Positions 3,546 to 37,340 of a stretch of 64,000 nt of DNA are shown here, one piece after another. Every line of letters begins with the position of its first letter. Position 1 is the first letter of the stretch. Position numbers and translations under genes: made by a program. The stretch comes from Candidatus Omnitrophota bacterium (lineage in GTDB: Bacteria; Omnitrophota; Gorgyraeia; Zapsychrales; JAKLDJ01). A model generated the notes under the pieces. The model was not told the DNA's origin and made no database searches. It saw nothing but the letters and a program-made list of their open reading frames with translations. The DNA lies in the NCBI GenBank assembly GCA_022703585.1, contig JAKLDJ010000001.1, positions 118,891 through 182,890 of the forward strand. The letters are read 5' to 3'.

Positions 3546-4028
3546 CTATCCTTTTATTGCTTTTCGTTTCAACAGAGTGACGACAACGAGATAGCCTACA
3601 AACGCAGCCGCAAGACCAACAATAACATAGCCGACAATCAGGGGCATGAGGATTTTTAATATTGAGACATCCCACAAATCTTTCCAGTGAAAATCTTTAA
3701 CGAGAAGCTCGCACTGGTCATAAACATTGCGCCAATCACAACCGGTTAAAAAAGATCCGGCTTTAACCGCGAGCAAAAACGTCACAAAACTAAGCCAGGT
3801 ATTGGTCAGGACACTGCCCAAAAGCGCTGCGGCCTTGTTAACCCTGAAAACGGCCGCCAAAACCAAAGACGCCACTGGCCCTGCCCCGGGAAATATCCCC
3901 AAGAACACGCCTAACCCAAACCCCAGGGCCGTCCTGTGCGGAGAATCGTTGATCTTGACGAGTTTTTCGTAGAGGACTTTTAAGAAATATTTCAGGCGGT
4001 CAATGATGTTTCTTTTTGAACTTTCCAT
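3546..4028 (-). CDS. DUF2062 family membrane protein
   Basis: 160 aa with the characteristic DUF2062 motif (HRTALGFGLGVFLGIFPGAG) and three TM segments. Confidence 0.7.
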   Translation of the reverse strand: MESSKRNIIDRLKYFLKVLYEKLVKINDSPHRTALGFGLGVFLGIFPGAGPVASLVLAAVFRVNKAAALLGSVLTNTWLSFVTFLLAVKAGSFLTGCDWRNVYDQCELLVKDFHWKDLWDVSILKILMPLIVGYVIVGLAAAFVGYLVVVTLLKRKAIKG

Positions 4029-4046
4029 GCACAGCTCCGCTTAATA

Positions 4047-20797: not shown

Positions 20798-21802
20798 TTA
20801 ATGTTTAGGGCCACTGCAGGATTCGCGCGTGACTAAGTCGGGAGACAAGATGATCTTTGCGGGCGTGGTCTTTTTACCGGCCACAATAGCATTAAGGTAC
20901 CTGACGGCTTCTTCGGCCATCTTAAAAAGAGGCTGACGGATTGTGGTTAAACCAATCGGCCCATACAAGGCAGAAGGATTATCGTCAAAACCGATAATCG
21001 AAATATCCTGTGGCACTTTAAGCCTTTTTTCCATAACCACTTCAATGGCCTCCAGCGCCATGTCATCGCTGGCGGCAAATATGGCCGTGGGAGGGTTTTT
21101 AAGCGACAGGAATTCTTCGACAGCGCTACGGGCACAGCGGCGGGAATAGTCCCCCTTATAAATATATTCGTCCCGCAGGGTGATTCCTTTCTTTTCAAGA
21201 GTTTCCTTAAATCCGTCCAGGCGGTGAGCCCCGGCCTGGGTGTTGACATTTCCGGTTATAGTGGCAATGCGTTTATGCCCAAGGCCGACTAAATATTCCG
21301 TCGCGATCTTAGCGCCCTTGATGTTATCAACGGCAATATAATTGACATCTAAATCCTCAACGATATTGTTGATAACAATGCAGGGGACACCTTCCTCAAG
21401 GACTTCCTGGACCTGTTTCTTATTCTCGATAATGTCGGCGAAAATAACCCCGCCCATGGCATTGGTATTAACCGGGCTATTGCCGTCGCTGATATGAAAA
21501 ACTAAATCCAGGTGCAGGGTCTCACAGGCATGGCCGACACCGCGGATAAGCTCGATGGCGTAAAAGGAATGGAACAAGCCCGGATAGCCGGGCATCACTA
21601 AGCCTACGGAATTGTTAAGGCCGCTGGCCAGCCGCTGGGCAGCAAGATTGGGTTTAAATTTTAGATGAGCAACAGCCTCTTCGACCTTAATGCGGTTTTG
21701 CTTGCTAACGGTAGGAACGTTATTGATAACGCGGGATACAGTGGTAATCGAAACCCCGGCTCGGCGGGCAACGTCTTCGATGCTGATTCTTTTTTTAACC
21801 AC
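20798..21802 (-). CDS. LacI-family transcriptional regulator
   Basis: N-terminal HTH (SIEDVARRAGVSITTVSRVINN) and a periplasmic-binding-protein-like sugar-binding core. Confidence 0.9.
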   Translation of the reverse strand: MVKKRISIEDVARRAGVSITTVSRVINNVPTVSKQNRIKVEEAVAHLKFKPNLAAQRLASGLNNSVGLVMPGYPGLFHSFYAIELIRGVGHACETLHLDLVFHISDGNSPVNTNAMGGVIFADIIENKKQVQEVLEEGVPCIVINNIVEDLDVNYIAVDNIKGAKIATEYLVGLGHKRIATITGNVNTQAGAHRLDGFKETLEKKGITLRDEYIYKGDYSRRCARSAVEEFLSLKNPPTAIFAASDDMALEAIEVVMEKRLKVPQDISIIGFDDNPSALYGPIGLTTIRQPLFKMAEEAVRYLNAIVAGKKTTPAKIILSPDLVTRESCSGPKH

Positions 21803-21814
21803 AGTCTTACAACC

Positions 21815-23077
21815 TTACTTTACGATATCACCGGCTTTAATCTTGGCGCCTTTTTGCTTGATATCGGCCGCGCAAATATCTTTTCTGACCTGGATGACTT
21901 CGACACTGGCAATAAATTTCGTTCCCCGATAAACACTCAGCTTATCGCCGATACGCACCCCGGCATTTTCTCCTCGGTCAATAACAATAAAATTATTTTC
22001 CGTATTTATACTCACGACACGCCCCTCAATACCAACGGCGCTGGCTGAGGGTTGAGAAACCGCGGCAGCAGGATTAGGCGCGCTAACGATAATGGGGGGA
22101 AGCTCGACCTCCTTGGAGGAGGAAGCCGATGTCTTTATCCGTTGGTCTAAGTTCTTTTTGATATCAAGGACTTCGTCGATTCTATTCTGGATAATGCTTT
22201 CGGTCTCGGAAAGTTTTCGCTCGACGGTATCCCGCTCTTCGCCCAGTTTCGTGATATTCTTCTCTAAGGCAATTTTAGCGGCCGATAATTCTTTGACCTG
22301 GGCGCGCAGATTTAAGTTTTCTTCCTTGAACTTATCCAAACGGTCCGCGATATAACGTTTGTCATTCTTCTCTTTGGCGAGTTCAATCGAGAGGCTGTTG
22401 GCTAAGTCCTCGCTATACTTGATCTTCCGCTCGATTTCTTCTTTGTCGTTCTTTAGCTGTCCCAACTCTAATTCCAAGTCGGAACTCTTTTTCTTAAGCT
22501 CCTCGACCTCGGTGGAGCCGCTCGACAGCTTGCCCTGCAGCTCTTCGATTTTTAATTCCAGCGAAGCTTTTTCCTTTAAGACATTCGCCCAGTATTTTTC
22601 ATTGCTTAAACTTTCCGGAAGCGCGATTGTCTCGGCCTGCTGTTCGCCAGCGGCTTGCTCCTTGGGCTGCTCCGGGACCTCCTTTGAAACCGCCGCTTGC
22701 TGCTGTAGCTGCGCCAACTCCTGGAGTTTCTCCTGGAGCTTGCTCATCAAATCATCGCGTTCTTTTCTAAGCTGATCAACCTGCCCCTTCCAGTCATCAC
22801 GTTCACCTGTTAACGTGACCACCTGGGTGTTGATATCGTCGAGTTGTTTTTTAATCTTGGCTTGGATGGATTGAGCTTCTTGGAGTTGCGTATCTAATTT
22901 TTTATTATCTTCGGTGAGCTTTTTTTCGCTTGCCTGGTAGGTTTCGATTGTTTTATTCTTATCGCTGACAGTCCGCTCGAGTTTTGTCTTATCATTAAGG
23001 AGGGAGACGCACAAAAATACGCTTGCAACAATAAGCACAAACAGTATGACGATAATCAGCTTGCCGGTTTTCGACAT
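21815..23077 (-). CDS. membrane-anchored coiled-coil protein with a C-terminal beta-rich domain
   Basis: 420 aa with an N-terminal TM helix, about 280 aa of heptad-rich coiled coil (K/E/L-rich), and a conserved-looking ~75-aa C-terminal domain (GRVVSINTENNFIVIDRGENAGVRIGDKLSVYRG...). It lies 12 nt upstream of lacI, so is probably co-transcribed. Confidence 0.6.
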   Translation of the reverse strand: MSKTGKLIIVILFVLIVASVFLCVSLLNDKTKLERTVSDKNKTIETYQASEKKLTEDNKKLDTQLQEAQSIQAKIKKQLDDINTQVVTLTGERDDWKGQVDQLRKERDDLMSKLQEKLQELAQLQQQAAVSKEVPEQPKEQAAGEQQAETIALPESLSNEKYWANVLKEKASLELKIEELQGKLSSGSTEVEELKKKSSDLELELGQLKNDKEEIERKIKYSEDLANSLSIELAKEKNDKRYIADRLDKFKEENLNLRAQVKELSAAKIALEKNITKLGEERDTVERKLSETESIIQNRIDEVLDIKKNLDQRIKTSASSSKEVELPPIIVSAPNPAAAVSQPSASAVGIEGRVVSINTENNFIVIDRGENAGVRIGDKLSVYRGTKFIASVEVIQVRKDICAADIKQKGAKIKAGDIVK

Positions 23078-23341: not shown

Positions 23342-24028
23342 TTATTCGTACCTTAAATCATCAAGATAAAACGTACAACCCTCGGGATTGACATCCACGT
23401 TGGTCGACCAGGCAAAACCACCGCTGACATAAGAGAGGTCTTTGCCCCGCAGGTCGATTGAATACTCCCTCCACTGGGGCGTTAAAATAACCGGGCCCAC
23501 CATCGCGGAATCGGAGTCGGGATAGTCACCGCTGACTCCACCCATTTTAAACTCCTCGATACGTTCTCCGCCTTTCTCGCCCTTAGCCCAAAACGTAAGT
23601 TTCGTGGCTCCGGTTAAATCAAAACCGCCTTTACGGGATCCCCAATTATTCGCCGGATTCTGCCAATACATCCCCGCCCACTTTGCTCCCTGCTTGGAAC
23701 AAACAGTATCATAAACGATTTTGATACAGTTCTTTCCTGAATGGCAATTTTGCGACCAGATATCATCGATATTCAGGCATTTGCCGTCCGGCATAAAACC
23801 CGATGGAATAAAATGGTTATCGGGTGACCCCTTATCGGCAAAAATCGAGAACGGACGAAAGTCTCCCGTCCCCGCGTCTTTCTTTGTTGCCAACTTCTGC
23901 TCCTGAGCACCGGAGACAGACTGTTCCGCCGCCTTGGCAGAAACTGCCTGCTGTTGGCTTGATGCCTTACCGCATCCCACCGCAAAAATAAAGCATCCGG
24001 CCACCGCATAGAGAATTATACGTTTCAT
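23342..24028 (-). CDS. lipoprotein with a putative carbohydrate-binding beta-sandwich domain
   Basis: Signal peptide with a lipobox (FAVGC), followed by a Ser/Gln-rich linker and then a ~170-aa domain with aromatic-rich beta-strand character. Confidence 0.6.
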   Translation of the reverse strand: MKRIILYAVAGCFIFAVGCGKASSQQQAVSAKAAEQSVSGAQEQKLATKKDAGTGDFRPFSIFADKGSPDNHFIPSGFMPDGKCLNIDDIWSQNCHSGKNCIKIVYDTVCSKQGAKWAGMYWQNPANNWGSRKGGFDLTGATKLTFWAKGEKGGERIEEFKMGGVSGDYPDSDSAMVGPVILTPQWREYSIDLRGKDLSYVSGGFAWSTNVDVNPEGCTFYLDDLRYE

Positions 24029-24226
24029 TTTTTTAAAATCACCTTTCCTTGGGCCTTTACACCACTAAGAAAATAGTGCGGATTCTAAATCCGGAGAACA
24101 AAGGCCAATACCGCGCAACTTCAGTTGCGCAGTACTGGGCCACTACCCGGTATTAACCGCCTCTATTGCAATTCATTTTACAAAAGTCAATAAAATCGTA
24201 TTTACCTTGATGCCGTTAAGCTTATC

Positions 24227-25114
24227 TTACTCTGCTGTTTTTAATTCTGCTATTTGCCTTTGAGCAGCATCCACCGGTTTCCAGAACCAACCCTGAGGAT
24301 CCCAGCATTGGGCAAACGAAAAATCGTTAACCACTTTTTCATAAGCCTCTTTGGCCTCTGCGTTCTTGCCGGCCTTCTTTAATGCCTCGCCCTTGATGAA
24401 GAGGCATGTTCCCACGTCATTGAGGGCCCAGAACCCGAATACCTTGTCTTTCTCGACCGGATATTCATTGGCCGCTTTCAAAGTCGCCTGCATTTCTTTG
24501 GCCTTGGCTTCATAAAGCTCAAGACATTTGCCGGTATAGGCTAAGACAGCGTCGAGGTCATTGTTGGTTAAAGCAGCCCACGCCTTGGTGGCCAGCGTCG
24601 ATGAGGTATAATCACCGAAATCCAGCGTTGAGCCTGATGCGATCGCCGCCAGTTTTTCTTTTGCAGCCTCGGCAGGTTTCCAAAACCAGCCCTTAACGTC
24701 CCAGCATTGGCCGAAAGAATATTCGTTAATCAGTTTGTTGAAAACTTCCTTGGCCTCATCATTCATCTTGGCCTTGCGATAGGCCTCGCCCTGAATAAAA
24801 AGGCAGGTGGCCACATCGTTAAGAGCCCAGTAGCTGAAAATCTTATCGTTAGCACCCGAGGCATACTCGCTAAGGCCTGCCTGCATTTTCTTCGCCTGTT
24901 CACCGTAAAGATCCATACATTTGTTGGTGTAGGCTAAGACCGCCTCAATGTCCCCTTTTTCTAACGCCGCCCATGCCTTACCGGTCAAGGTCACGGAACG
25001 AAAATCCCCGAAATCATAAACCGCCGCAGAGGCCGGCTGCGCCAACGTGACTGCCGGACACAGACCAATGGTTACCGCCGCCAGCAAAACCATAAACATC
25101 GTCCTTCTCATCAC
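24227..25114 (-). CDS. secreted protein made of two tandem copies of a novel ~125-aa domain
   Basis: Signal peptide, then two collinear repeats (…KAWAALEKGDIEAVLAYTNKCMDLYGEQAKKMQ…WALNDVATCLFIQGEAYRK…QCWDVKGWFWKP and …KAWAALTNNDLDAVLAYTGKCLELYEAKAKEMQ…WALNDVGTCLFIKGEALKK…QCWDPQGWFWKP). Confidence 0.65.
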   Translation of the reverse strand: MMRRTMFMVLLAAVTIGLCPAVTLAQPASAAVYDFGDFRSVTLTGKAWAALEKGDIEAVLAYTNKCMDLYGEQAKKMQAGLSEYASGANDKIFSYWALNDVATCLFIQGEAYRKAKMNDEAKEVFNKLINEYSFGQCWDVKGWFWKPAEAAKEKLAAIASGSTLDFGDYTSSTLATKAWAALTNNDLDAVLAYTGKCLELYEAKAKEMQATLKAANEYPVEKDKVFGFWALNDVGTCLFIKGEALKKAGKNAEAKEAYEKVVNDFSFAQCWDPQGWFWKPVDAAQRQIAELKTAE

Positions 25115-25189
25115 TTCCTCCTTTTGATTGTTTTATTGCTGTGGTTTGCTTTTGTTTTTACCCGTTAACTTCGCCTAAACAATTTTCTC

Positions 25190-27553
25190 CTAAGACTGAT
25201 TCCAAAGCCTTTTATATAAATAATAGCTTTGCCTCAATTGCCTTAAGAAGGGACTGCTCTTGCCGTCTCCCTGGCCGCAGAGGCCAAACCATTCCTCATA
25301 CATATAGCCGTCGGGAAACGGGCCTATAGCGCCCGCAGTTCTATCGTGATTGGAGGGCTCGTAATTCTTCCACCACTCGTCAATCCATTCAAAAACAATG
25401 CCTCCGATGGCATTGCCCACGCCCTCCGCACTCTTAGCGGAATTGGACTCGATATCCAGCCAGTTGCCTAAATGATAATCAGCCTGGGCCTTCTCGGCCT
25501 CTTCACGCGTCAAGTTAGTCGCATACCCGGGACAACCGAATTCCGAAATAAAGGCGGGCTTTCCGGTGGCGTCAAACACCTGCTCCCAGAAAGAACCAAA
25601 TCCGTAATCACCCCGGTAGGCATTCGCCGCATAGACATCCACATCGGGACAATATTTGGCAAATATATCCAAGTATAGCATATCGCCGTTACACATGGCA
25701 ACAGGATGATTGGGGTCAATAGATTTGATCATCAAGGCCACTTCATTAACAAATTTATAATAGGCCTCGGGTTTTTTATCCGCGTTACAGGCAACACCGT
25801 AATTATTTTCATTGCCCAAAAGCCACATGAGAACATACGGCTCGTCCTTGTATTCCATAACCATCTTCCTGACCGATTCCATCATGGCAGAGCGATGTTG
25901 CGGATTTTCGTAATCGGTTCCTTCGTACCAGCTTGCGCCCGAACCCAAAGCATACTTTCCCAAGAAGTCCGCCAGGATAACACGGATACCGTATTCCTTA
26001 TACATAGCTCGCAAGAGATTCTTATCAGGTTCAAACGGCTGATGATAAAAACGGATGGTGTTGGCCCCCAATTCCTCGAGCAGCCTGAAGTCACCTACCA
26101 CCAATTCATTCACATCTTGGATGTTATTTAAGTTCCCGTCAACCCAAGAATCGTACGGCCCGTCAGCCTTGCCGTTATGATTGGTATCTTCCGTCATCCA
26201 ATTAACCAACGTTCCCTTGTCCGGGCTCTGCCCTACCTTGGTAGGGGCATAGGTAATACCTTTGATTATATACGGTTTCCCGCCGACAAGCATCTGCCAG
26301 TGGCCATTTTCATATTGAACCAGACGCACTTCGCCTTGCCCTAAGCTTCTTTTGATTTTCCCCAAGTTAACACGCTGCTTATTTAAATTCAATCGTTCCG
26401 CCACGTGATCCATAAAACTTTTCTTCTTGAGGATTCCCGGCGAAGTAATCACAATATCATTGGCGATATCGTTATCAAAACCTTTAATGACCTGGATCTT
26501 GGCTCCCTTAAATTGCAGATTCAACTCCGGATGCAAGCGAACCAGGTGCCGGATCTTGGCGACAGCAGCCTGACCAGGATACCAGGGCGTACGCCAGTAG
26601 GTCCGGCCGGTGGCATTGGGAAAATGCACGATAATTGCCCGATAAGCCTTTAAGGCCTCATAATACATCTTGGCTTTTTCAAAGATTAATCCGATATAAA
26701 AAAGCTTAACTCCCCAGGGTTCGGGAGCCGTCGCCCATTTATAAAAAGCCGCCTCCAAATCCGCGCTGTGCACAAAATCCCAGTGGCTGCCCTCCAGCCT
26801 TCCTTCTTTTCTGACCCGATTATAACCGGGGTCTTTTAAAACCGAACCCGTATTCGGATAAATCCCTTCGCCGATCGCCTCGGATAATCCTTTGGGATCA
26901 GTAGCCTCATAATGATACTCTTTAGTGCCCGCCCCGATAAATCTCCCGTACTTCGCGTAATCGACAACGTCTTCTTTTCCCTTAAAATGAAGCTGGGGCA
27001 AGGTCTTTTTTTCTTCCTTGGTAACGACAACAGGTTTTTCCTCCGCTTTCTTACCGTTCAGCATGTCAATACTCGCCTGGCTTTTCTCCGCCACCGACCA
27101 AAACCAGCCGCGCGGATCCCAAGCCTGCGACCATTTATATTCATCAATGATTTTTTGGAAAATCTGTTTGGCCTCTTCGCTGCGGCCGTTTTGCATCAGG
27201 GCTTCGGCTTTAATAAATAAGCACGTGGCCACATTGTTTAACGATTGATAATCGTCTTCCTGGCCGGGCATGGGAAAAGTCCCTAAGCTTGCCTGTTGGT
27301 TCTTGGCCTCATTGTCGTAGGTATCAACACATTTTTGGGTAATCGATAGAACCTTTTCCAAATCGTTTTTCCCTGAGGCTTCCCAGGCTTGACGGACGAA
27401 TTCTTTGGAAGGAATGTCGGAAGGAACATCTTGGGCAAGGGCATAGGAGTTGGGGTTTAGGGCATAGAAGAAAAAGGCCAGGGCCAACATTTTCATTGTT
27501 AAGCCCCAGCCCCTAGACCCTAATCCCTGAACCATAGACCCTAAACTTCTCAT
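25190..27553 (-). CDS. secreted glycoside hydrolase, clan GH-A TIM barrel (GH2/GH5-like), with an N-terminal copy of the novel domain found in 24227..25114
   Basis: 787 aa with a signal peptide. The N-terminal ~130 aa match the repeat of the upstream gene (CLFIKAEALMQNG…QAWDPRGWFWS). The catalytic core carries an NE acid/base motif (LLGNENNYG) and a nucleophile motif (FISEFGCPGY), as in GH2/GH5 families. Confidence 0.7.
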   Translation of the reverse strand: MRSLGSMVQGLGSRGWGLTMKMLALAFFFYALNPNSYALAQDVPSDIPSKEFVRQAWEASGKNDLEKVLSITQKCVDTYDNEAKNQQASLGTFPMPGQEDDYQSLNNVATCLFIKAEALMQNGRSEEAKQIFQKIIDEYKWSQAWDPRGWFWSVAEKSQASIDMLNGKKAEEKPVVVTKEEKKTLPQLHFKGKEDVVDYAKYGRFIGAGTKEYHYEATDPKGLSEAIGEGIYPNTGSVLKDPGYNRVRKEGRLEGSHWDFVHSADLEAAFYKWATAPEPWGVKLFYIGLIFEKAKMYYEALKAYRAIIVHFPNATGRTYWRTPWYPGQAAVAKIRHLVRLHPELNLQFKGAKIQVIKGFDNDIANDIVITSPGILKKKSFMDHVAERLNLNKQRVNLGKIKRSLGQGEVRLVQYENGHWQMLVGGKPYIIKGITYAPTKVGQSPDKGTLVNWMTEDTNHNGKADGPYDSWVDGNLNNIQDVNELVVGDFRLLEELGANTIRFYHQPFEPDKNLLRAMYKEYGIRVILADFLGKYALGSGASWYEGTDYENPQHRSAMMESVRKMVMEYKDEPYVLMWLLGNENNYGVACNADKKPEAYYKFVNEVALMIKSIDPNHPVAMCNGDMLYLDIFAKYCPDVDVYAANAYRGDYGFGSFWEQVFDATGKPAFISEFGCPGYATNLTREEAEKAQADYHLGNWLDIESNSAKSAEGVGNAIGGIVFEWIDEWWKNYEPSNHDRTAGAIGPFPDGYMYEEWFGLCGQGDGKSSPFLRQLRQSYYLYKRLWNQS

Positions 27554-27827: not shown

Positions 27828-29408
27828 ATGGAACAAGCAGCGAATCAGCCAACCCACCATGTAACAGCCCGTGCCGATCGTATTTCTTTCTTTCAAAAAT
27901 TCGTCTACGGGATGGGGTCGTTCGTTAACCAATTTGCCGGCGCTGCGATGGGGAGCTTAATTCTTGTTTTAAACCTTGGGCTCGGTGTCAATCCCGCCTT
28001 AGTCGGAACGATAGGAGCTATCCCTCGTTTTCTCGATGCCTTTTCCGATCCCTTAATCGGCTACAGCTCGGACAATACCCGAACCCGCTGGGGCCGCCGT
28101 AAGCCCTGGATATTGTTTGGGGCCCTTTCTTCGGGAATTTTATTAGCCATGATGTTCCAGCTCCATCCGGGAAAAAGCGAAATGTTCTATTTCTGGTGGG
28201 TCTTGGGAATCCAATGCCTCTTTGTTATTGCCTTCGCCTGCTATTCAATCCCCTGGCTTGCTCTTGGATATGAAATGACGCCGGATTATCATGAACGGAC
28301 ACGGTTGCAGGCAGTCGCCAGTTTTTTTGGCCAACCCGTCTGGATTATTGCAGCCTGGATTCCGATGGTCATGACTTCAAAAGAAATTCCTATCAAAATA
28401 TGGAATTGGACTTTAACCGTTATCAATAGTCCGTTTAAAGATATCGTCGAAGCATCACGGGGCCTTGCGATCTTTGTCGGGATCTTTATTACCGTCTTCG
28501 GGGTCCTTCCGGCTCTTTTCAATAAAGAACTTTACGGGAATTTACCCCGGCCGGAAAAAGCAAAAGGTTATAAAAATGTTATTAAAGACATCTTGCACAA
28601 TTGTGCCACTTCTTTCAAATGCGGCCCGTTTGTCAAGCTGGTCACGGTAACATTCCTGATCTTCAACGGATTCATGCTGGCCTCCGCCTTCACCGCTTAT
28701 GTTGTTTTCTTCTATGTCTTTGGCAATCAACCCACCATGGACCTGATGTACCAAAACGGCGGGGCCTTGCTGGGTGTCTTTGGGTCACTCAGTGCCATTT
28801 GTACTGCCTTCGTCGCCATTCCCTTAACAACATGGATTTCGACAAAACTCGGCAAGCGCAAGACCTTTTTAATCACCATGTCGCTGGCAATCTTTGGTTA
28901 CGTCTTAAAATGGGTCGGATATAACCAGCAATATCCTTATTTACTGATCGTCGCGGCGCCATTCTTGGCGTTCCACCTGGGGTCGCTGTTTACAATCGTC
29001 TGCTCCATGGTCGCCGATGTATGTGATCTTGATGAGCTTCAGACCGGCACCCGCCGGGAGGGGATGTTCAGCGGTATTTTCTGGTGGGTCCAAAAGCTGG
29101 GCATGGCCGGGGCATCGCTCCTCGCCGGAATCCTCCTCAATGCAACCGGTTTCAAACAGGCGCTAGGCCTCAACCAGACAGCGGACGCTTTGTTTTACAT
29201 GAGAGTTTGCGACGTCGGAATTCCGATTGTGACCTCTTTGATCGCTATTTACATTATCATGACCTTTGATATCACAGAAGCTAAAGCCTACGATATCCGC
29301 CAGCAGGTCGAACGGCGAAGAGAAGACAGGCGAAAAGAAGAACGGCGTGCAGAAGAAAGACGCGCAGAAAAAAGACGGGAAGAAGAAAGACGAGGAAGGC
29401 AGTTATAG
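27828..29408 (+). CDS. MFS transporter, glycoside-pentoside-hexuronide (GPH):cation symporter family
   Basis: 12 TM helices and the GPH signature (DAFSDPLIGYSSDNTRTRWGRRKPW). It has an atypical 35-aa Arg/Glu-rich C-terminal tail (RREDRRKEERRAEERRAEKRREEERRGRQL). Confidence 0.85.
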   Translation: MEQAANQPTHHVTARADRISFFQKFVYGMGSFVNQFAGAAMGSLILVLNLGLGVNPALVGTIGAIPRFLDAFSDPLIGYSSDNTRTRWGRRKPWILFGALSSGILLAMMFQLHPGKSEMFYFWWVLGIQCLFVIAFACYSIPWLALGYEMTPDYHERTRLQAVASFFGQPVWIIAAWIPMVMTSKEIPIKIWNWTLTVINSPFKDIVEASRGLAIFVGIFITVFGVLPALFNKELYGNLPRPEKAKGYKNVIKDILHNCATSFKCGPFVKLVTVTFLIFNGFMLASAFTAYVVFFYVFGNQPTMDLMYQNGGALLGVFGSLSAICTAFVAIPLTTWISTKLGKRKTFLITMSLAIFGYVLKWVGYNQQYPYLLIVAAPFLAFHLGSLFTIVCSMVADVCDLDELQTGTRREGMFSGIFWWVQKLGMAGASLLAGILLNATGFKQALGLNQTADALFYMRVCDVGIPIVTSLIAIYIIMTFDITEAKAYDIRQQVERRREDRRKEERRAEERRAEKRREEERRGRQL

Positions 29409-29447
29409 AGGCTTTCGTTCTGTTTATCCCTGGAGCTTAAGGAAAAC

Positions 29448-30389
29448 GTGACAAAACAACCTGACAATAAAAGTATGAACTCAAAACCGGTTATTATTTT
29501 TCCATACCGAGGGTATGAGAATAACGAACAGTGTGAATGGTATTTTTGGTGGACCGTTGACCGATGCAAAGAAATCGATCCCAGGCCGATCGTTGTGTTG
29601 CCCCGGGATACAGTCATAAAGCAGAATGCCGTTTCTTTCATAAAAGATGAGCGATACAAGACCCTCGAGGTTGTGCAAACCTGGTCGGTCGACACATCCC
29701 AGACATGGCTTGCCGGCTGGGGCCATGTGCTTGATAATTATCCTAAAGTAGAAAGAATTGTGCAAATCCCGGGTGACCTGGATTATGTCAAAGAGGATGT
29801 CAAGTTCTATGAAAACTTGAGCAGCTTTATTAAAACAACAGGTTCGGATATTGCCATAGGAGATTTTGGGACCGGGGATAAGTTCAGCGCCAAAAGCTTA
29901 GTCGATACCTACGGCTCGTACCCACTTCTCGCGAACTGGTTTCCGGAGATCTCGCAAAGCATAAGGTCCCTGCCTCTTCACAGATCGAGGTCCGAGTTTC
30001 TTAATATCAAGACATCGGTTTTGCGCGAGCTTATCATAAATAACAGAAATTTTGCTTATGAACAAACCCTGAACTTCTTGATCAAATCCTGGAATTACGA
30101 TGAAGCAAAATGGAAATATAATATATCCGTATCTCCCCTAGGAAGCCTGTCGGACAATAAGTCTTTTAGGGATTACAGAGCCTCTGTTGACCAGATAGAG
30201 AGAATCGAACGGATGCTTTCTTTATTATGGCGGGAAATCAGGGAGCCAAAAAAGAAAGACAGCGTAGACGATAAAGAGTTCGAACAACAGTATACCGTGT
30301 TCAGCAACGAATACGACAAACTCTACACTAAATCAAAAGGCATTATGGAAACCGCCCGAACGACTCTAAGGGCCTTCTTGGGCGTATAG
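29448..30389 (+). CDS. hypothetical protein (no recognisable domain)
   Basis: 313-aa ORF 39 nt downstream of the MFS gene. It is soluble and no motif was recognised. It is followed by a bidirectional terminator hairpin. Confidence 0.5.
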   Translation: MTKQPDNKSMNSKPVIIFPYRGYENNEQCEWYFWWTVDRCKEIDPRPIVVLPRDTVIKQNAVSFIKDERYKTLEVVQTWSVDTSQTWLAGWGHVLDNYPKVERIVQIPGDLDYVKEDVKFYENLSSFIKTTGSDIAIGDFGTGDKFSAKSLVDTYGSYPLLANWFPEISQSIRSLPLHRSRSEFLNIKTSVLRELIINNRNFAYEQTLNFLIKSWNYDEAKWKYNISVSPLGSLSDNKSFRDYRASVDQIERIERMLSLLWREIREPKKKDSVDDKEFEQQYTVFSNEYDKLYTKSKGIMETARTTLRAFLGV

Positions 30390-30468: not shown

Positions 30469-31314
30469 CTATCCCCCCGTTGCCCCGTATGTAAAGCCCC
30501 GCATAATATGTTTTTGCATCAGTAAATATATAAAGATAATAGGAAGCGCGGCAATAGTCAGGCCCGCCATCAAGACCGGATAGTCCACGCTGTGAGCCCC
30601 CTGAAATTTCATAAGCCCTATCTGAAGCGGCATCAGGTCTTTATCGTTTAAAAGCAGTTGCGCTAAAATATACTCGTTCCACACAATTAAAGAATTAAAA
30701 ATAACAACGACCGCAATGGCAGGCCTGGCCCACGGCAAGGCAACATGCCACCAGATACCCAATTTATTGCATCCCTCGATGCGGGCCACATCTTCCAAGT
30801 CAGACGGCAATTTATCAAAGAATGTCTTGAGCAAAAAGATACTCATGGAAAGCCCGACATTGATCATGCAAAGAATATAGCCGATGCGCGTATCGGCCAA
30901 TCCCAATTTATTGACCAAAACAACCAGGGGAACAAAACTCCCCGGCAAGGGGATCATCATCGCGGCGATAAACATATAGAAAAAGAAATTCTTGCCCGGA
31001 AAACTCAAACGAGAAAATGCAAAAGCAGCCAGAGAAGCGACAACGACTATTCCCCCCACAACCGTACCCGTATAAAAGATGCTGTTGAGCAAATATATTC
31101 CAAAACCTCCGTCAACCCAGGCCTTGGCATAGTTTCCAAAATGAAGCGCAGACGGTATTAAAGACTTGTCCGTAAAAATAGTGTCCAGGCTCATCAAAGA
31201 CGATCGAAACATCCAAAAAAGCGGAAACAAGCACGTCACGGCGGTCGCAATTAAGAAAGCATGGGCACCGACACCGCCTAAAACTTTTAATGCCCTGTAA
31301 TACAATAAGTTCAT
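30469..31314 (-). CDS. carbohydrate ABC transporter permease (MalG-like)
   Basis: 281 aa with six TM helices and the binding-protein-dependent EAA motif (EDVARIEGCNKLGIWWHVALPWARP). Confidence 0.85.
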   Translation of the reverse strand: MNLLYYRALKVLGGVGAHAFLIATAVTCLFPLFWMFRSSLMSLDTIFTDKSLIPSALHFGNYAKAWVDGGFGIYLLNSIFYTGTVVGGIVVVASLAAFAFSRLSFPGKNFFFYMFIAAMMIPLPGSFVPLVVLVNKLGLADTRIGYILCMINVGLSMSIFLLKTFFDKLPSDLEDVARIEGCNKLGIWWHVALPWARPAIAVVVIFNSLIVWNEYILAQLLLNDKDLMPLQIGLMKFQGAHSVDYPVLMAGLTIAALPIIFIYLLMQKHIMRGFTYGATGG

Positions 31315-31396
31315 ATGTTTTTAATCCTATGCGATTGACTTTGAGAGTTCTTTGCGTTCGCTGGGTTCGTTGAGTTCGTTGTGTTTCTTACTCAGC

Positions 31397-31445
31397 CAAC
31401 TCTATAACTCTATAAACCCTATAAACCCAATAAACCCAACAAACT
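31397..31445. repeat. short tandem repeat array (~9-nt unit AACYCTATA / AAACCCAAY) in the spacer between the two ABC permease genes
   Basis: aactctat aactctat aaaccctat aaacccaat aaacccaac aaactcact, preceded by gggttcgttgagttcgttg. Confidence 0.5.
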
Positions 31446-31448
31446 CAC

Positions 31449-32456
31449 TCAGGCTTGCTTTAACCTGTCCGAAATAAACTTAAACCCTAAAGAAACAGCA
31501 ATTAAAATGATACCAAAAGCGACACCCTGCGCGCAGGCATAACCAAAATAGTGATCCAGCATCGAATCCAGGATCTCTGTTACCGGAACAGAAGTGTAGT
31601 CCACAAAACCGCTTCTGCCAGTCATCGAAATAATAAGGATAAACGACTGCATGGAACCTAAGATCGTCAGTATAACAACGACGAGGGTGACCGGTATCAT
31701 CGCGGGAAGAGTAACATTCTTTAGTATCTTCCAGCTCCCGGCCCCATCAACTTTCGCCGCTTCATAAAGCTGCCGATCGATTGTCTGCAGTCCGGCCAAG
31801 AACATCAAAAATCCCCATCCAAAACCTTTCCAGGAGTGCACGATGGATATGCACGGCAAGGCCGTCCGGGGGTCGGACAACCAGTTATTGACCAAATGGG
31901 GAAAACCTGTTTTTACCAGTACGTAATTTAAAAGCCCGATAGGTTCACCGCTTTGCATTCCGGCATTTAGAATCCACGTCCACACTAAACCAACCACCAC
32001 TTCCGATAAAACAGGCGGTATAAAAAAAACGACAATATAAAAATTCTTCATTCTTAGCTCGCGGTCACACAAAAGAGCGAGTGTAAAAGCCAGGGCATTC
32101 TGAAAGGTTAATGCCACGAGGGTAATAAATCCTGCGTTCATCAGAGAGCCCCACCATTGCCTATCCTGGAAAAGGTCGATAAAGTTCTGAAAACCTACAA
32201 AATCTTCCTTGAACTTAATAACATCAATCCCATTCCATTCAAGAACGGAAAGTCGAAATATATCGATAAAAGGATATACGTAGAAAGTGCAGAAGATAAC
32301 AACAGCGGGCAAAATAAACAAAAAGCTCGTGAGATGCGCCCCCATGAAGTCCTTCGACTTTGGCTCAGAATGGTGAGCGAAAGTCGAACCATTTTTCTTA
32401 CCCGGGTTCACCCGCCGCAATTCCGTGGGACGAGTCGAAGGGCCTGTCTCTACCAT
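31449..32456 (-). CDS. carbohydrate ABC transporter permease (MalF-like)
   Basis: EAA motif (YEAAKVDGAGSWKILKNVTLP) and six TM helices. The ORF-track start at 32522 overlaps the upstream binding-protein gene by 65 nt; the start was moved to the in-frame ATG at 32456 (MVETGP...) immediately after the SBP stop. A later ATG at 32345 is also possible. Confidence 0.8.
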   Translation of the reverse strand: MVETGPSTRPTELRRVNPGKKNGSTFAHHSEPKSKDFMGAHLTSFLFILPAVVIFCTFYVYPFIDIFRLSVLEWNGIDVIKFKEDFVGFQNFIDLFQDRQWWGSLMNAGFITLVALTFQNALAFTLALLCDRELRMKNFYIVVFFIPPVLSEVVVGLVWTWILNAGMQSGEPIGLLNYVLVKTGFPHLVNNWLSDPRTALPCISIVHSWKGFGWGFLMFLAGLQTIDRQLYEAAKVDGAGSWKILKNVTLPAMIPVTLVVVILTILGSMQSFILIISMTGRSGFVDYTSVPVTEILDSMLDHYFGYACAQGVAFGIILIAVSLGFKFISDRLKQA

Positions 32457-32457
32457 G

Positions 32458-33834
32458 TTAATTCTTTCGCCTGCTTTCTCTTTCCAAAACTTTTTCTTTC
32501 GCGGCTTGAACTTCTTGCGCAACTTCTTGGGGTGTTTTTTCTCCGATAATAATCGACTGAATTCCTTTAGTAAATCTTTCGCTCACCTTAGGATGCTCAT
32601 TGACTCGCCATGCCGTCGGATGAGTCCCGTAGTCTGCGCCTTTGGCAAAGCCTGACAAAATAGGATCAACGGCTGAAAGTGCCTTTTTATTGGCGGGGAG
32701 ATTTTTTGTTTCTGCCGCAAAGACAGCTTGTTGTTCTCGGGCTGTCAGCCATTTTAAAAAATCAATTGATTTTTGCTTATTCATAGATCCGCCATTAACC
32801 ACAAACGACGAACCCGTGTACCAGATGGCCATAGGAAAATTTTTGCTCACGGCCGGGGGCAGCATAACGCCGTATTCGAGATTCGGATTCATATCCTTAT
32901 AAACATTAACACACCAAGAACCGTTAAAGGCAAAGGCGGCGCGCTCTAAGGCAAAATCCTGCTCGGCATATTTGTTGCCTTTGATAACGATGCCCTTAAC
33001 AAACGCGTCGTGATCGGCCAATATTTTAAAAAGATTAAACACTGTTATCCAGTCAGCATCGGTATACTTTACCTTGCCGCGGTAGGTCGCCATGACCTTT
33101 TCTTCGCCCATTACATTAAACGCATAATTCGAGGCAAAGCAATCGATCAGCCATGCCTCGCCCCAGCCGGACACAAAGCCGGCAAGGCCGACGCGCTTTA
33201 AGGCTTCGATGTCTTCGATAAGTTCCTGGAATGTCTCCGGGGGATTGGTAATGCCGGCCTGTTTGAGGAGTTTTTTGTTATAAAGCATCTGGATGGTGGT
33301 CACATCGATAGGGACCCCGTAAATACCGGGCCTGATCTTATAGATGTTGCTTTCTTCAAATTGATTAACCGCCAGGGCCTTGGGGAAAAAGCTCGATTCC
33401 CACTCGGAATTATTAAGCCGAAAATCATTTGTCAGATCCGCGACAAAACCGTTTTCGATAAACGAGGCAAAGACTTTCTTTTCGCCCAATACGCCGAAAA
33501 TATCCGGCAGGACCTTGGCCTGGGCAGCGGCAATAACCTTCTGCGAGTAGGCGTCCGACGGAGCATAGAGTTCAAAATTGACTTTGATGCCCGTTTCCCG
33601 CTCGTATTTTTGGGCGAGCTCAACCAGCGCGTCGTGCCGGTCAGTCATCCAGTGCCAGACGGTAATCGTATCGGTATTTTTGTTTTTTCCGAATGTGCAG
33701 CCCGTAATATTTAAAGCAGAAATAACGGCAAGAATGGATAGAACAAAAACGCAGGAGAAAGGTTTTCTCATCCGCCCTTTTCCTTTGTGCGGTGGGTTTC
33801 CCTTAGAGATTTTGCCCCGCCTCCGGCGGGGCAA
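32458..33834 (-). CDS. extracellular solute-binding protein of a sugar ABC transporter
   Basis: 458 aa with a lipoprotein-type signal (ALNITGCTFG), then a family-1 SBP fold. Confidence 0.8.
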   Translation of the reverse strand: MPRRRRGKISKGNPPHKGKGRMRKPFSCVFVLSILAVISALNITGCTFGKNKNTDTITVWHWMTDRHDALVELAQKYERETGIKVNFELYAPSDAYSQKVIAAAQAKVLPDIFGVLGEKKVFASFIENGFVADLTNDFRLNNSEWESSFFPKALAVNQFEESNIYKIRPGIYGVPIDVTTIQMLYNKKLLKQAGITNPPETFQELIEDIEALKRVGLAGFVSGWGEAWLIDCFASNYAFNVMGEEKVMATYRGKVKYTDADWITVFNLFKILADHDAFVKGIVIKGNKYAEQDFALERAAFAFNGSWCVNVYKDMNPNLEYGVMLPPAVSKNFPMAIWYTGSSFVVNGGSMNKQKSIDFLKWLTAREQQAVFAAETKNLPANKKALSAVDPILSGFAKGADYGTHPTAWRVNEHPKVSERFTKGIQSIIIGEKTPQEVAQEVQAAKEKVLERESRRKN

Positions 33835-33881: not shown

Positions 33882-36800
33882 TTACCGCTGGCCTCCATCC
33901 GGAACCATCATGATATTGATATTCGGTTTCCGGTTGTGCACAATAACGCCATCGGCTACATAAGTATGATAAGGATTAACCTCGAAATTGTAAATATTAA
34001 CTTTATTATTTACAACTTCGATAGTTTGGATGGCAACGTCTTCGCCTTGAGTGTTCGTCAGGGTATCACCGACTTTTAATTTCCCTATCTCTGTCCAGGC
34101 TCCTTTGCTTAAAACCCGGTGGATAGGTGTCACCTTCATATGACCGTTCACGATCAAGAAAGTGTCCTCTTGGTCATGCTTAAAGACCTCCGTGACCTTG
34201 TCCGGCTTCATCTGCTTTGTCTCTTCGTCGAAGGCCAAGACCACATCACCGACGCTGATATTCTCAATCGGCTTTTGCGTCCCGTCTGCCATCGTGATCG
34301 GCGTCCCGGCCAAGAAACAGCCAGGCGCGCTGGTAATGGTCAGGGTGGCGTCGTCGAAGTAGGCCTGCGCAGGAAGCGGGTAACTTACCGCGTCATAAAA
34401 GAGATTGGCTCTAATTGTCGCAGTGGCAGCTGTACTAGGAATTGTTATATTGCTAACCGATAACAGCGTCCAAGGAGTATTTCCTCCTATCGTGTTAGAA
34501 GAATGGGTGCCGATTTCAGCGCCACTGGAATTCTTAAATATGACCAAAAGCTGGGCGCTGGCTGTTGCCAGCGGGTCAATAATCGTTCTACCGTAAATTG
34601 TAGCGGTTAACTTCCTTCCCGGCGTAACGTTAACCGTTTGTTCGACTGCTCCGTTATGATCCTGAAGAGATACCGGGAATTCAAAGAGCGCGGCATAACT
34701 CCCGCTATGAGAAAGCGTCGTGACTTCAGCCGGTTGAAAAGGCATGTCCCAATCGCTTAACCCATTTTCAAAACCGGAATTAAGCAAAGTTGTTTGCGCC
34801 GGAGGAGAAATATAGTCATAGGAATAAACGAAATTATCGAAGTTGCCTATCCCTCCTACTGCTTGGCTATCTCCCTGAGAAGCGAAAACAAACCCGCTGA
34901 CTCTCACCTTGGTTGCGCCGGCAGGAATAGTCCCGGAAACATAAAGTTGCCGCCAACCATTATCCGCGGTTATTTGATCCGCATCAATGACATACGCGTC
35001 CCCTTGATTATCAATATACTCAAGCTGTATTCCAGCCGCCGCACTTGAAAAAACGCTTATGTCCGATTTAAGATAAGCGGTTAGATAAACATTTTGTGCC
35101 GCAGGAAATGGGCTTCCTTGCGCATTGTAATAGATATCCTGATAAATCGTGCTGTAATAATTTTGGGTAGTAGTTGAACCGATAGTCTTCTTAGCAGAAT
35201 AAGGAGAACTGTGCGGATTAACAGAATCTAATTCGCTGGGCGCTCCGTAAAGGTCAGTCCAACCACCAAGACCGCTACCGTCGTCAAAATTAGGGTTAAC
35301 GAGGCTTGTCCTAAAATTAGGTGGCGGTAATTGATCAAAAGAAGCAAAAACATCGTCGAAATATATATTCCCGCCATAAAGCGATGCGGCATGCGGGCAG
35401 GAAACAAAAGGACTCACCCTGGCCTTAGCCGATGAAGACGGGGCAACTGCCGTTACAAAAAGATACGTCCAGCCTGTTATCCCGCCGATTGTATTTGATT
35501 GCACCGGGCTACCGATAGGCGTACCATCTGCCTCAAAAAATTCCAGCTGCAAGCCAGCCGTTGCGCTGGATCGTGGATCTATAACAGTTTTGGCCCATTC
35601 AGTTGCCCACAATTGCTGTCCGGGAGTCACGGTAAATTCCTGGTAAATCCTCGACCAAAAATCCGCAGATCCGCCTGGAACTTGAATAATTGATTTGGCG
35701 GATTTGGTCCCAGTCCGATGCTCTTCAGTAACTGCCGCCATCGGATACCCGGTTGCATCTTGCGTCCATCCAGCCATGTCACTTTCAAAACTAGGATTGA
35801 GGATTAAATCGCTGGGCGGAGTGTTTGAAAAAGCCATGTCATCAACAAAAACATTGCCATTGATTGTCCCTTGATTCCTTTGCGCCCAAGCATAAGCACT
35901 TATTCTAACCGTGGCTGTGCCCGTTGGTGCTATGTTGTAAACATAAAGTAAAGACCAGTCGGTTTGACCTCCTATATCTGCTTGCTGAGCTGAACCAATC
36001 GGCTGCCCGGAACCATCTAAGAACTGAATCTTCACTCCGCCCCTAGCAATTTTCGAAGGATCAATATTTGTTTTTACCCATCCGGTAACATAAGCAGTAT
36101 TTCCTACGGTAAAGGGGATATCTTGCTGGTAAAGCTCAGTATAATAGTCGTTACTACCAGCCGTATCTCCTATTGTATGGTTTGCAGAATAAATTCCGGA
36201 ATGATGAGTCGTACTGGCTATCCACGGCCGGTAGAGAAAAGTCCAATCATTAACACCATTTTCAAAATCGGCATTAATCAAATCCGACGGAGGAAGTAAC
36301 GGTGGAATAGCCGTGTATGAAACTGCAAAATCATCAATATAGAAGTTACCACCTACTGCTGCCGTATCATTTTGCCCAGCCCAAAGAAATCCGCCAACTC
36401 TTATTTTTGTTGTAGTTGCCGGGGCAATCCCTGAAACATACAGCTGACGCCAATCCGTCATTCCTCCGATCTCCGACTTGATATCATACTGGCTGCCTAA
36501 ATAAGTGTTTCCGTTGTAAAACTGAATAAGCAATCCACCCTTCGCGCTTGCTAATGGATTTATGGCTGTCTTACCCCAAGCTGTGGCATAAATTGCCTGA
36601 CCTGCGCTTAAGGGCACTTCTTGATAAACTTGACCCCAATAATCCGAAGTAACACCATTGACATTATCCCGGGCACTATAAACTCCGGTATGAGCATAAG
36701 TAGTCGAAGCGCTGAATTGAGAATTACCGGCCCAACCGCTTAACTGTGATTCAAAACCAGGATTCGTTATTAAGCCGCCACCGGGGGCTTGAATTCTATC

Positions 36801-37340
36801 AATAAACATATTGTCAACGGCTACTTTGCCTCCAATAGCAGATGAATCGTCTTTGGCGGCATAAGCAAACGCACCTGCTCTCACTTTTGCTGTTCCGGTC
36901 GGAGCAGTGCCGGTTACATAAATTTCAGTCCAATCATTAACCCCGCCGACGGGCGTAGTTATCGTCCCAACGACAACATCTGAAGAATTGAGAAATTCTA
37001 CCATGATACCACCGCGAGCGGATGAACCCTCAGCCATTTGGGTTTTAATCTGCGCGGTCATGTAAATCGGATCGCCGGCCGCGACAGGAGTAATTACTTG
37101 ATAAATCTCGGCAAAATAATCCCTGTCAGCTACGGTGGTTATCGTATTTTCCGCGGCATAATTCGGGCTATGCACTATGGCATAGAAAGGATAGCCGACC
37201 GTTGACCAATTATTCACCCCGTTCTCAAAGCCCGGATCCGTAAAAAGATTCGTCGCCCAAGCTTGTGTGCCTACAGACAAAAACAGCCCTACAATTAGGG
37301 CTCCGATGGTTAATGCTCGTTTCATAACTCTGCCTCCCAT
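33882..37340 (-). CDS. secreted protein with six CBM4/9-like carbohydrate-binding repeats and a C-terminal bacterial intein-like (Hint/BIL) domain
   Basis: 1152 aa with a signal peptide. Six ~150-aa repeats each start with a NPGFE/DFENG...W motif. The C-terminal ~140 aa carry Hint blocks: CFLAGTPITMADG (N-terminal nucleophile Cys) ... VGDVVLAFDEE ... NIYNFEVNPYHTYVADGVIVHN (terminal His-Asn), followed by only 16 residues. Confidence 0.8.
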   Translation of the reverse strand: MGGRVMKRALTIGALIVGLFLSVGTQAWATNLFTDPGFENGVNNWSTVGYPFYAIVHSPNYAAENTITTVADRDYFAEIYQVITPVAAGDPIYMTAQIKTQMAEGSSARGGIMVEFLNSSDVVVGTITTPVGGVNDWTEIYVTGTAPTGTAKVRAGAFAYAAKDDSSAIGGKVAVDNMFIDRIQAPGGGLITNPGFESQLSGWAGNSQFSASTTYAHTGVYSARDNVNGVTSDYWGQVYQEVPLSAGQAIYATAWGKTAINPLASAKGGLLIQFYNGNTYLGSQYDIKSEIGGMTDWRQLYVSGIAPATTTKIRVGGFLWAGQNDTAAVGGNFYIDDFAVSYTAIPPLLPPSDLINADFENGVNDWTFLYRPWIASTTHHSGIYSANHTIGDTAGSNDYYTELYQQDIPFTVGNTAYVTGWVKTNIDPSKIARGGVKIQFLDGSGQPIGSAQQADIGGQTDWSLLYVYNIAPTGTATVRISAYAWAQRNQGTINGNVFVDDMAFSNTPPSDLILNPSFESDMAGWTQDATGYPMAAVTEEHRTGTKSAKSIIQVPGGSADFWSRIYQEFTVTPGQQLWATEWAKTVIDPRSSATAGLQLEFFEADGTPIGSPVQSNTIGGITGWTYLFVTAVAPSSSAKARVSPFVSCPHAASLYGGNIYFDDVFASFDQLPPPNFRTSLVNPNFDDGSGLGGWTDLYGAPSELDSVNPHSSPYSAKKTIGSTTTQNYYSTIYQDIYYNAQGSPFPAAQNVYLTAYLKSDISVFSSAAAGIQLEYIDNQGDAYVIDADQITADNGWRQLYVSGTIPAGATKVRVSGFVFASQGDSQAVGGIGNFDNFVYSYDYISPPAQTTLLNSGFENGLSDWDMPFQPAEVTTLSHSGSYAALFEFPVSLQDHNGAVEQTVNVTPGRKLTATIYGRTIIDPLATASAQLLVIFKNSSGAEIGTHSSNTIGGNTPWTLLSVSNITIPSTAATATIRANLFYDAVSYPLPAQAYFDDATLTITSAPGCFLAGTPITMADGTQKPIENISVGDVVLAFDEETKQMKPDKVTEVFKHDQEDTFLIVNGHMKVTPIHRVLSKGAWTEIGKLKVGDTLTNTQGEDVAIQTIEVVNNKVNIYNFEVNPYHTYVADGVIVHNRKPNINIMMVPDGGQR

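Follow-up and report, generated by a model that had tools for sequence, protein, structure and literature searches.

The stretch of DNA analyzed here is a 64-kb window from a Candidatus Omnitrophota bacterium, in which two neighboring minus-strand genes, A and B, share a protein module with a unit length of ∼125-130 residues (Table 1). Both open reading frames have the coordinates and lengths given in the original prediction, and both N-termini read as signal-peptide-like leaders. A can also start at an ATG at 25099, which yields a 290-residue protein 100% identical to a database protein of that length (P0001); B probably starts at M20, at position 27496, because the 100% identical database protein has 768 amino acids. 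The original prediction described A as made up wholly of two tandem copies; the two copies are there, but the ∼30 N-terminal residues are the leader and not part of a module. The third copy was correctly placed at the N-terminus of the 787-residue hydrolase B, and alignments recover all of the sequence blocks quoted for the three. The copies in A are 56-57% identical to each other in amino acid sequence, and each is ∼39% identical to the copy in B (39% over 125 residues for the second A copy, BLASTP E = 5e-33), a likeness far above chance. The DNA copies had been put at ∼70% identity; the values are in fact 65% between the A copies and ∼50% between either of these and the B copy. A six-frame scan of the window with a hidden Markov model (HMM) of the module, a giant open reading frame included, gave no further full copies. 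The middle region of B (residues ∼180-345) ends in a degenerate half-unit resembling the module's C-terminal half; it is visible in the AlphaFold2 model but does not reach significance with the module HMM (domain E 0.38-11).

The unit belongs to the tetratricopeptide repeat (TPR) superfamily. Pfam TPR_6 matches one repeat per unit with 41.3 bits in A and 36.5 bits in B (gathering score 26.3 bits), TPR_2 matches with 33.8 bits (gathering score 27 bits), and TPR_8 and TPR_1 match too; NCBI and JGI records call homologues "tetratricopeptide repeat protein". The AlphaFold2 model of A has a mean pLDDT (predicted local distance difference test) of 87.5, ∼95 inside the modules, and a pTM (predicted template modeling score) of 0.62. 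In it, each unit runs through helix 1 (13 residues), helix 2 (24 residues), a short turn helix, helix 3 (19 residues), and helix 4 (14 residues) to a β-hairpin, with the sequence Q-C-W-D-x-x-G-W-F-W in A, and then a 14-residue capping helix (H40-52/H56-79, H96-114/H118-131, and cap H147-160). As modeled, the unit is two TPR-like helix pairs followed by a Trp-rich β-hairpin (Q-x-W-D-x-x-G-W-F-W) and a cap, where the first pair is a degenerate TPR whose second helix is long and the second pair is a canonical TPR_6-type repeat. A Foldseek search of the PDB with the two-module model returned generic TPR proteins only, with probabilities of 0.9-1.0, a best E of 3e-3, and TM scores of at most 0.35; the flexible two-domain arrangement of A suggested by its pTM probably lowers these scores.

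No family in Pfam, NCBIfam, or the PDB describes the unit as a whole. A search of PDB sequences with a profile of the whole unit gave nothing at E < 0.3, and Pfam holds no model of the full unit, the sole longer match being a sub-threshold one to DUF2225 (18.6 vs 21 bits). NCBIfam matches, for example to the TPR region of tol_pal_ybgF, all fall far below their cutoffs. A distant single-module member, P0300, has no Pfam match at all. The original prediction held that neither a TPR-like nor a known carbohydrate-binding module (CBM) family fits. The first half is refuted by the above-cutoff TPR_6 and TPR_2 matches, the record names, and the TPR-only Foldseek matches; the second half stands, as no CBM model in Pfam or NCBIfam matched A or the module region of B. 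A confident Pfam match, which the same prediction had named as evidence against a new domain, does exist, but it covers only ∼30 of ∼125 residues and leaves the whole unit uncovered.

Among characterized TPRs, the unit resembles the TPR_6 (PF13174) and YbgF(CpoB)-type periplasmic proteins in its second helix pair, which matches TPR_6, in its helix-turn-helix fold, and in being exported in a diderm. It differs in that the likeness covers only that one repeat, in that the unit is a fixed set of two repeats, a Trp-rich hairpin, and a cap that behaves as an independent, shufflable domain, and in having invariant motifs of its own (S..L...AW, WALNDVGT, and Q.WD..GWFW). Across 52 diverse modules, S8, A15, W16, C34, A42, L49, L68, N69, D70, V71, T73, I77, A91, Q106, W108, D109, G112, W113, and W115 are conserved in at least 90%. 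To judge by sequence, the subset W16, N69, D70, T73, Q106, W108, D109, G112, W113, and W115 has a composition typical of sugar-binding sites.

The profile search for the domain in other genomes, which the original prediction had proposed together with a survey of fusion partners, uncovers a large family with some members fused to GH158-like, GH128, and GT2 enzymes (GH, glycoside hydrolase; GT, glycosyltransferase). Exhaustive searching with the module profile matched 1271 clusters (50% identity) at E ≤ 1e-3, 739 at E ≤ 1e-10, and 137 at E ≤ 1e-30. The best 150 representatives carry one copy (80 proteins), two (45), three (12), four (9), five (3), or seven (1); the majority are module-only proteins with signal peptides, and 17 have at least 140 residues outside the modules. 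Single-module proteins of 150-190 residues have a signal peptide or a lipobox. A search started from the divergent P0300 is dominated by two-copy Omnitrophota proteins. Copy number also differs between two contigs from metagenome-assembled genomes (MAGs) with ∼99.9% identical flanks, where an exact tandem duplication of a 393-nucleotide (131-residue) module separates a three-copy protein (L001:12411-13661) from a two-copy protein (L002:12411-13268). The middle copy in L001 is a chimera of the N-terminal half of copy 2 and the C-terminal half of copy 1, the pattern expected from unequal crossing-over; the difference between the contigs may be a real polymorphism or reflect an assembly collapse.

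Of the two conserved Cys originally reported, both (K-C and T-C) are common to all three copies in the window, and a third position exists in Q-C-W-D, where B has Ala. Over 748 distinct module instances the three positions hold Cys in 83%, 55%, and 64%, and Ala, Ser, Val, or Thr otherwise, so that in sequence they look like small buried sites. Every combination occurs, lone Cys included (77 instances with the first Cys only, 59 with the third only, and 48 with none). This co-occurrence pattern led us to reject a disulfide as a family feature, and the disulfide stabilization suggested earlier is unlikely in an obligate form.

The C-terminal catalytic part of B is, by sequence and by fold, closest to GH158. 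Against sequences of solved structures, B matches GH158(Pro) (9oro_A, E = 3.4e-17, over residues 544-696 only), BuGH158 (6pal, E = 2.6e-9), and then GH2 glucuronidases. Foldseek of the AlphaFold2 model of B likewise puts GH158 on top (9p26, E = 1.4e-13, TM(target) 0.56; 6pal too), followed by GH2 and by GH72 β-1,3-glucanosyltransferases. The clan GH-A pair, an Asn-Glu acid/base after strand 4 and a Glu nucleophile after strand 7, is present; G-N-E582 and S-E671-F-G are invariant in 92 B homologues, and the two Glu residues align to E143/E229 of GH158(Pro), the numbering offset being 8 at both positions (PMC13195107). The catalytic residues of BuGH158, for comparison, are N136/E137/E220 (PMC7157763). 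Unlike GH158 (6pal; 9oro/9p25), to which it is only ∼22-24% identical over part of the barrel, B has ∼450 extra N-terminal residues, and the AlphaFold2 model of the full-length protein (pLDDT 86.5, pTM 0.84) lacks the C-terminal eight-stranded Ig-like domain of that family, as its barrel ends at residue 787. The model places a β-rich region (residues 346-434) N-terminal to the barrel. B is closer to an enzyme on a 27% GC contig (locus L094, E = 6.5e-56) than to true GH158; in contrast, a GH158 from locus L083 matches 9oro (E = 1e-85) and 6pal (E = 5e-64) over its full length. We thus provisionally class B as a GH158-like member of clan GH-A, which groups more closely with a distinct B-type clade than with true GH158. 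In place of the TPR module, the L094 enzyme (L094:2-2038, + strand) has Big_7, CBM6/CBM35, and CHU_C, a type IX secretion signal, which suggests that the B-type clade reaches beyond Omnitrophota, there with conventional CBMs.

We sampled about ten module contexts outside Omnitrophota, and enzymes of β-1,3-glucan metabolism recur among them. In L083 (62% GC), a 168-residue single-module gene overlaps the start of the GH158 gene by 17 nucleotides, an arrangement that is the split form of the fusion in B. A single-module gene lies 9 nucleotides upstream of a GH158 gene in L092 (51% GC), and another stands beside a LacI-type regulator, a GH158, and a 1163-residue GH149-like protein in L086 (56% GC). 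The gene downstream of the module in L090 encodes a GH149 β-1,3-oligoglucan phosphorylase (E = 1.5e-41 to 6hq6, a structure deposited as a β-1,3-oligosaccharide phosphorylase). In L094 the order is B-type hydrolase, 299-residue protein, GH128 with CBM6 (6uaw, E = 1e-25), and module protein. Two modules are fused to a GH128 core in P0281 (Glyco_hydro_cc, E = 5e-44); other fusions involve GT2 (P0294), a GH158-like GH-A domain with He_PIG and DUF4082 (P0323), CHB_HEX_C (P0267), and RHS (P0312), and in one case a module gene is found close to a GT2 exopolysaccharide cluster. GH158 and GH128 are clan GH-A endo-β-1,3-glucanase families (PMC7157763). Because GC ranges from 27 to 62%, these loci appear to come from several lineages; it is only from GC and from neighboring genes (PATR, CHU_C) that we infer a spread beyond Omnitrophota.

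A small gene immediately upstream of GH158, as in L083 and L092, is also what one would expect if the module were a dedicated chaperone, inhibitor, or immunity protein that keeps the glucanase inactive or folded until export. We consider this very improbable, since module proteins carry signal peptides themselves, enzymes that look active (B, P0281) contain the module in covalent fusion, and tandem arrays reach 7 copies. Retention at the envelope would account for other features of the family: if the module bound the cell's own peptidoglycan or an outer-membrane glycan and held exported enzymes at the surface, like SLH, LysM, or Sel1-like repeats, then export, tandem units of varying copy number, fusion partners such as RHS and very large proteins of surface type, and the contexts that have no link to glucan catabolism would all be understandable. 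Yet it leaves the recurrence with β-1,3-glucan enzymes across differing envelopes unexplained, and the module-only proteins would carry no cargo; we hold it to be improbable.

In Omnitrophota the module belongs to a conserved operon. Homologues of B that are 60-74% identical over their full length occur in many Omnitrophota MAGs, and 495 stretches in a one-genome-per-species collection encode the module. The best 80 of these 495 all come from Omnitrophota-type MAGs, some of which are labeled "uncultured Planctomycetales". The gene order, on one strand, is near-invariant: solute-binding protein, permease, permease, B, A, 228-residue lipoprotein, 420-residue coiled-coil protein, LacI, gidA. B lies directly upstream of A in 62 of 69 evaluable loci, and the lipoprotein directly downstream of A in 69 of 73 related loci. 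A GH94 phosphorylase gene sits just upstream of the operon. The closest solved relative of the window copy is the cellobiose phosphorylase 3qde (E = 5.7e-145), and this copy is far from the GH94 laminaribiose phosphorylase; laminaribiose specificity was rejected for this enzyme, the nearest families being cellobiose and chitobiose phosphorylases. On predicted functions, the layout is a catabolic one, with an exported endo-glycanase, an oligosaccharide ATP-binding cassette (ABC) importer, a cytoplasmic phosphorylase, and a LacI regulator. Profile searches found neither the Omnitrophota lipoprotein nor the coiled-coil protein in the sampled loci outside the phylum.

Table 1. Features of the module genes and of their surroundings in the 64-kb window
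Feature	Position	Strand	Description and basis
Gene A	24227..25114	-	295 residues; signal-like leader and two tandem modules; open reading frame
Module copy 1 (A residues 32-161)	24632..25021	-	alignments; domain HMM E = 3e-72; TPR_6 at residues 104-132
Module copy 2 (A residues 164-295)	24230..24625	-	alignments, HMM; TPR_2/TPR_8 at residues 237-262
Gene B	25190..27553	-	787-residue exported hydrolase; open reading frame; N to C: module, linker, middle domain, β-strand region, TIM barrel
Module copy 3 (B N-terminus, residues 41-170)	27044..27433	-	alignments, HMM, BLASTP; TPR_6 at residues 111-139
Degenerate TPR, aromatic hairpin (TYWRTPWYP), and helix (B residues ∼280-340)	26534..26716	-	model; TPR_2/TPR_1 at residues 284-313
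Clan GH-A (β/α)8 domain (B residues ∼480-787)	25193..26116	-	sequence and Foldseek
Putative acid/base E582	25808..25810	-	invariant; aligns to GH158(Pro)
Putative nucleophile E671	25541..25543	-	invariant; aligns to GH158(Pro)
LacI-family regulator	20798..21802	-	conserved operon member
Coiled-coil protein, 420 residues, N-terminally anchored	21815..23077	-	conserved operon member
Lipoprotein, 228 residues, lipobox AVGC	23342..24028	-	CBM-type β-sandwich-like motif pattern; weak choice-of-anchor J match (E = 0.0056)
Hairpin in the 198-nucleotide gap between A and the lipoprotein gene	24105..24138	-	15-bp stem, 8 GC; consensus scan only
GPH-family symporter and 313-residue open reading frame	27828..30389	+	inserted between the permeases and B
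ABC sugar importer (two permeases and solute-binding protein)	30469..33834	-	directly upstream of B in most relatives
1152-residue protein	33882..37340	-	between the solute-binding protein gene and the GH94 gene
GH94 phosphorylase	37574..40000	-	Pfam E = 1.9e-109; predicted cytoplasmic disaccharide/oligosaccharide phosphorolysis
Giant open reading frame, 7598 residues	41147..63943	-	∼14 kb from the operon

The reading that we favor, with a probability of about 0.5, is that the unit is a TPR-fold glycan-binding module, a noncatalytic accessory of extracytoplasmic β-glucan processing. The β-1,3-glucan substrate is common to the enzymes to which the module is fused or adjacent, and, because the lipoprotein and coiled-coil partners are missing from the outside loci, the common factor appears to be a class of substrate and not a single partner. 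A CBM-like role is suggested by the several enzyme families acting on one polymer, by the variable tandem arrays, by the CBM6/35 that holds in the L094 enzyme the place that the module has in B, and by the Trp/Asn/Asp/Gln-rich near-invariant residues. Variable tandem copy number is typical of CBMs. As CAZy-type CBM families require, the unit is found as a contiguous noncatalytic module within carbohydrate-active enzymes, namely the GH158-like B and P0323, the GH128 enzyme P0281, and the GT2 enzyme P0294. The substrate- or partner-binding module of the original prediction thus survives as a mobile accessory on a clan GH-A hydrolase in contexts that fit a binding role, without an obligate disulfide and without its supposed lack of TPR kinship. 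A polysaccharide-binding TPR module has a precedent in PgaA (PMC9384988).

In such a scheme, the module would bind a glucan chain, β-1,3-linked or mixed-linkage, through sugar contacts made by the near-invariant Trp/Asn/Asp/Gln cluster. The single copy in B would target the GH158-like catalytic domain to its substrate, and module-only A proteins with two to three copies would act as multivalent glycan-capture proteins. Oligosaccharides released by B would pass through the adjacent ABC importer to GH94 phosphorolysis, with LacI controlling the whole. More tentatively, at somewhat less than even odds, the unit may be the founding member of an all-helical, TPR-fold CBM family for β-1,3-containing glucans, widespread in Omnitrophota and present in several other lineages, in which the Trp-rich hairpin on two TPRs would form the sugar platform and A would be a soluble counterpart of surface glycan-binding proteins (SGBPs).

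Several points weigh against glycan binding. The conserved Trp, Asn, Asp, and Gln residues might do no more than make up the core of this small domain. The classical ligands of TPRs are proteins or peptides, and nearly all known CBMs are β-rich, not helical. In its lipoprotein, the operon already has a CBM-like protein. The contexts of L089, L091, and L093 have no glycan link, and that of L093 is in a Pho regulon. The association is drawn from the roughly ten non-Omnitrophota contexts, and binding itself, with its specificity, is what we infer from it. The substrate of the window operon is moreover uncertain because its GH94 lies nearest to cellobiose, not laminaribiose, phosphorylases; it may be a β-1,3, mixed-linkage, or β-1,4 glucan, processed in the periplasm or at the cell surface.

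The fold and the tight gene linkage also fit a protein-protein adaptor, which would dock on or activate the glucanase, or bring B, A, the lipoprotein, and the coiled-coil anchor together in a complex, at the surface or in the periplasm, with A as multivalent scaffold. The TPR assignment by Pfam, AlphaFold2, and Foldseek agrees with such a role; the 17-nucleotide overlap in L083, the 9-nucleotide gap in L092, and the fusion in B form a Rosetta-stone pattern that fits physical interaction; the B-A-lipoprotein order is very tightly kept; and the pTM of full-length B hints at a compact multidomain body. NlpI, a scaffold for hydrolases, is a comparable case. With its three-repeat TPR, PgaA binds PgaB and increases the activity of this hydrolase (PMC9384988). 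On the other hand, a single conserved interface is hard to picture for enzymes as different as GH158-like, GH158, GH128, GH149, and GT2 proteins, the lipoprotein and coiled-coil partners are missing outside Omnitrophota, the conserved residues are near-invariant across lineages with differing partners, and A consists only of modules, so that a homotypic scaffold would bridge nothing else. We regard an adaptor role as the main rival to glycan binding, serious but less likely. The two roles are not mutually exclusive, as the TPR module of PgaA does both, binding the polymer and stimulating PgaB (PMC9384988).

Read as a glycan-binding module, the unit can be set beside three known kinds of binder. 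Like the classical CBMs (CBM6/CBM35, CBM4_9), it is appended to several GH families and occurs in tandem copies and in stand-alone forms, but it has a helical TPR fold instead of a β-sandwich, it matches no CBM model, and its binding is only conjectured. SusD, which binds glycans, is likewise helical and made up of TPR units. The SusD-like SGBP-A and the SGBP-B of Bacteroidota β-1,3-glucan loci resemble A as noncatalytic proteins encoded beside a GH158 (PMC7157763). The module has, however, 125 residues against ∼500 and is tandemly repeated and enzyme-fused; neither A nor B has a SusD/RagB Pfam match, and the locus encodes no SusC-type TonB-dependent transporter but an ABC importer instead. 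PgaA, and likewise PelB, BcsC, and AlgK, whose TPR scaffolds serve synthase-dependent exopolysaccharide systems, offer the likeness of a short periplasmic TPR module working with a glycoside hydrolase; PgaA binds the polysaccharide on the concave face of its TPR (PMC9384988), and members of the module family are also fused to or near GT2 synthases. The module differs from PgaA in that the sequence relation is at the TPR level only, in lacking an outer-membrane porin, in its catabolic context (ABC importer, phosphorylase, LacI), and in its aromatic hairpin, which PgaA does not have.

The fold class and the generic TPR annotation were already known. In the libraries and literature searched, we found no description of this module, of the coherence of its family, or of its systematic link to β-glucan enzymes and its phylum-wide Omnitrophota operon; the public labels "tetratricopeptide repeat protein" and "GH2 TIM barrel protein" mask a coherent family and a near-universal operon beside gidA. 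If the module binds β-glucan, a helical fold would join the almost exclusively β-stranded CBM repertoire, and the unit would serve as a sequence marker for β-1,3-glucan utilization loci outside Bacteroidota. It would also help to explain sugar acquisition by Omnitrophota, which have been proposed to be host-dependent or predatory. Were the unit a founding CBM family, A would be the functional counterpart of the Bacteroidota SGBPs in a phylum whose members are ultrasmall and host-associated; if the unit serves instead as an adaptor for docking or activation, it would offer a catabolic parallel to the pairing of TPR and hydrolase in PgaA-PgaB.

Among the other operon members, the lipoprotein has no Pfam match and no PDB sequence relative. 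Its conserved pattern (PSG.MP.G.C, W.G.YW..P..NWG, L.FWA.G, and C.F.LD) recalls galactose-binding-like CBM β-sandwiches, and five Cys positions are kept in at least 90% of 78 homologues. The 420-residue protein consists of an N-terminal membrane helix, a coiled coil of ∼300 residues, and a small C-terminal β domain with weak FlgT_C/OB matches. The hairpin between A and the lipoprotein gene could be a partial or internal terminator or an attenuator that sets the ratio of B and A to the downstream genes; a strong hairpin also follows the displaced permease gene in the window. That displacement is due to the plus-strand GPH-family symporter gene and its 313-residue companion. The position of the GPH gene varies (after LacI in L031, between A and the lipoprotein gene in L060, and before B in L018, L026, L035, and L045), which suggests that the pair is a mobile cassette; the companion is found beside the GPH gene in L031 and L060 as well.

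Just upstream of its module-GH158 pair, L083 encodes a 465-residue protein (L083:678-2075, + strand) that confidently matches the FYVE zinc finger (PF01363, E = 1.9e-15). FYVE domains are typically eukaryotic; the contig shows a bacterial gene organization, with a GntR regulator and MadL/MadM. In the window, the 1152-residue protein upstream of the importer contains CBM_4_9 (residues 511-600) and a C-terminal pretoxin HINT domain (residues 1018-1136); in L001 and L002 its position is taken by an unannotated gene for 941-966 residues on the opposite strand. The only Pfam matches of the giant open reading frame are a response-regulator receiver (residues ∼764-847) and a canonical TPR block (residues ∼3890-4170). 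Omnitrophota giant genes with nearby "GH2" genes have been discussed (10.1101/2023.11.21.568195, 10.64898/2026.06.07.730766), and the second of these, a 2026 preprint, reports that "GH2" genes recur next to them.

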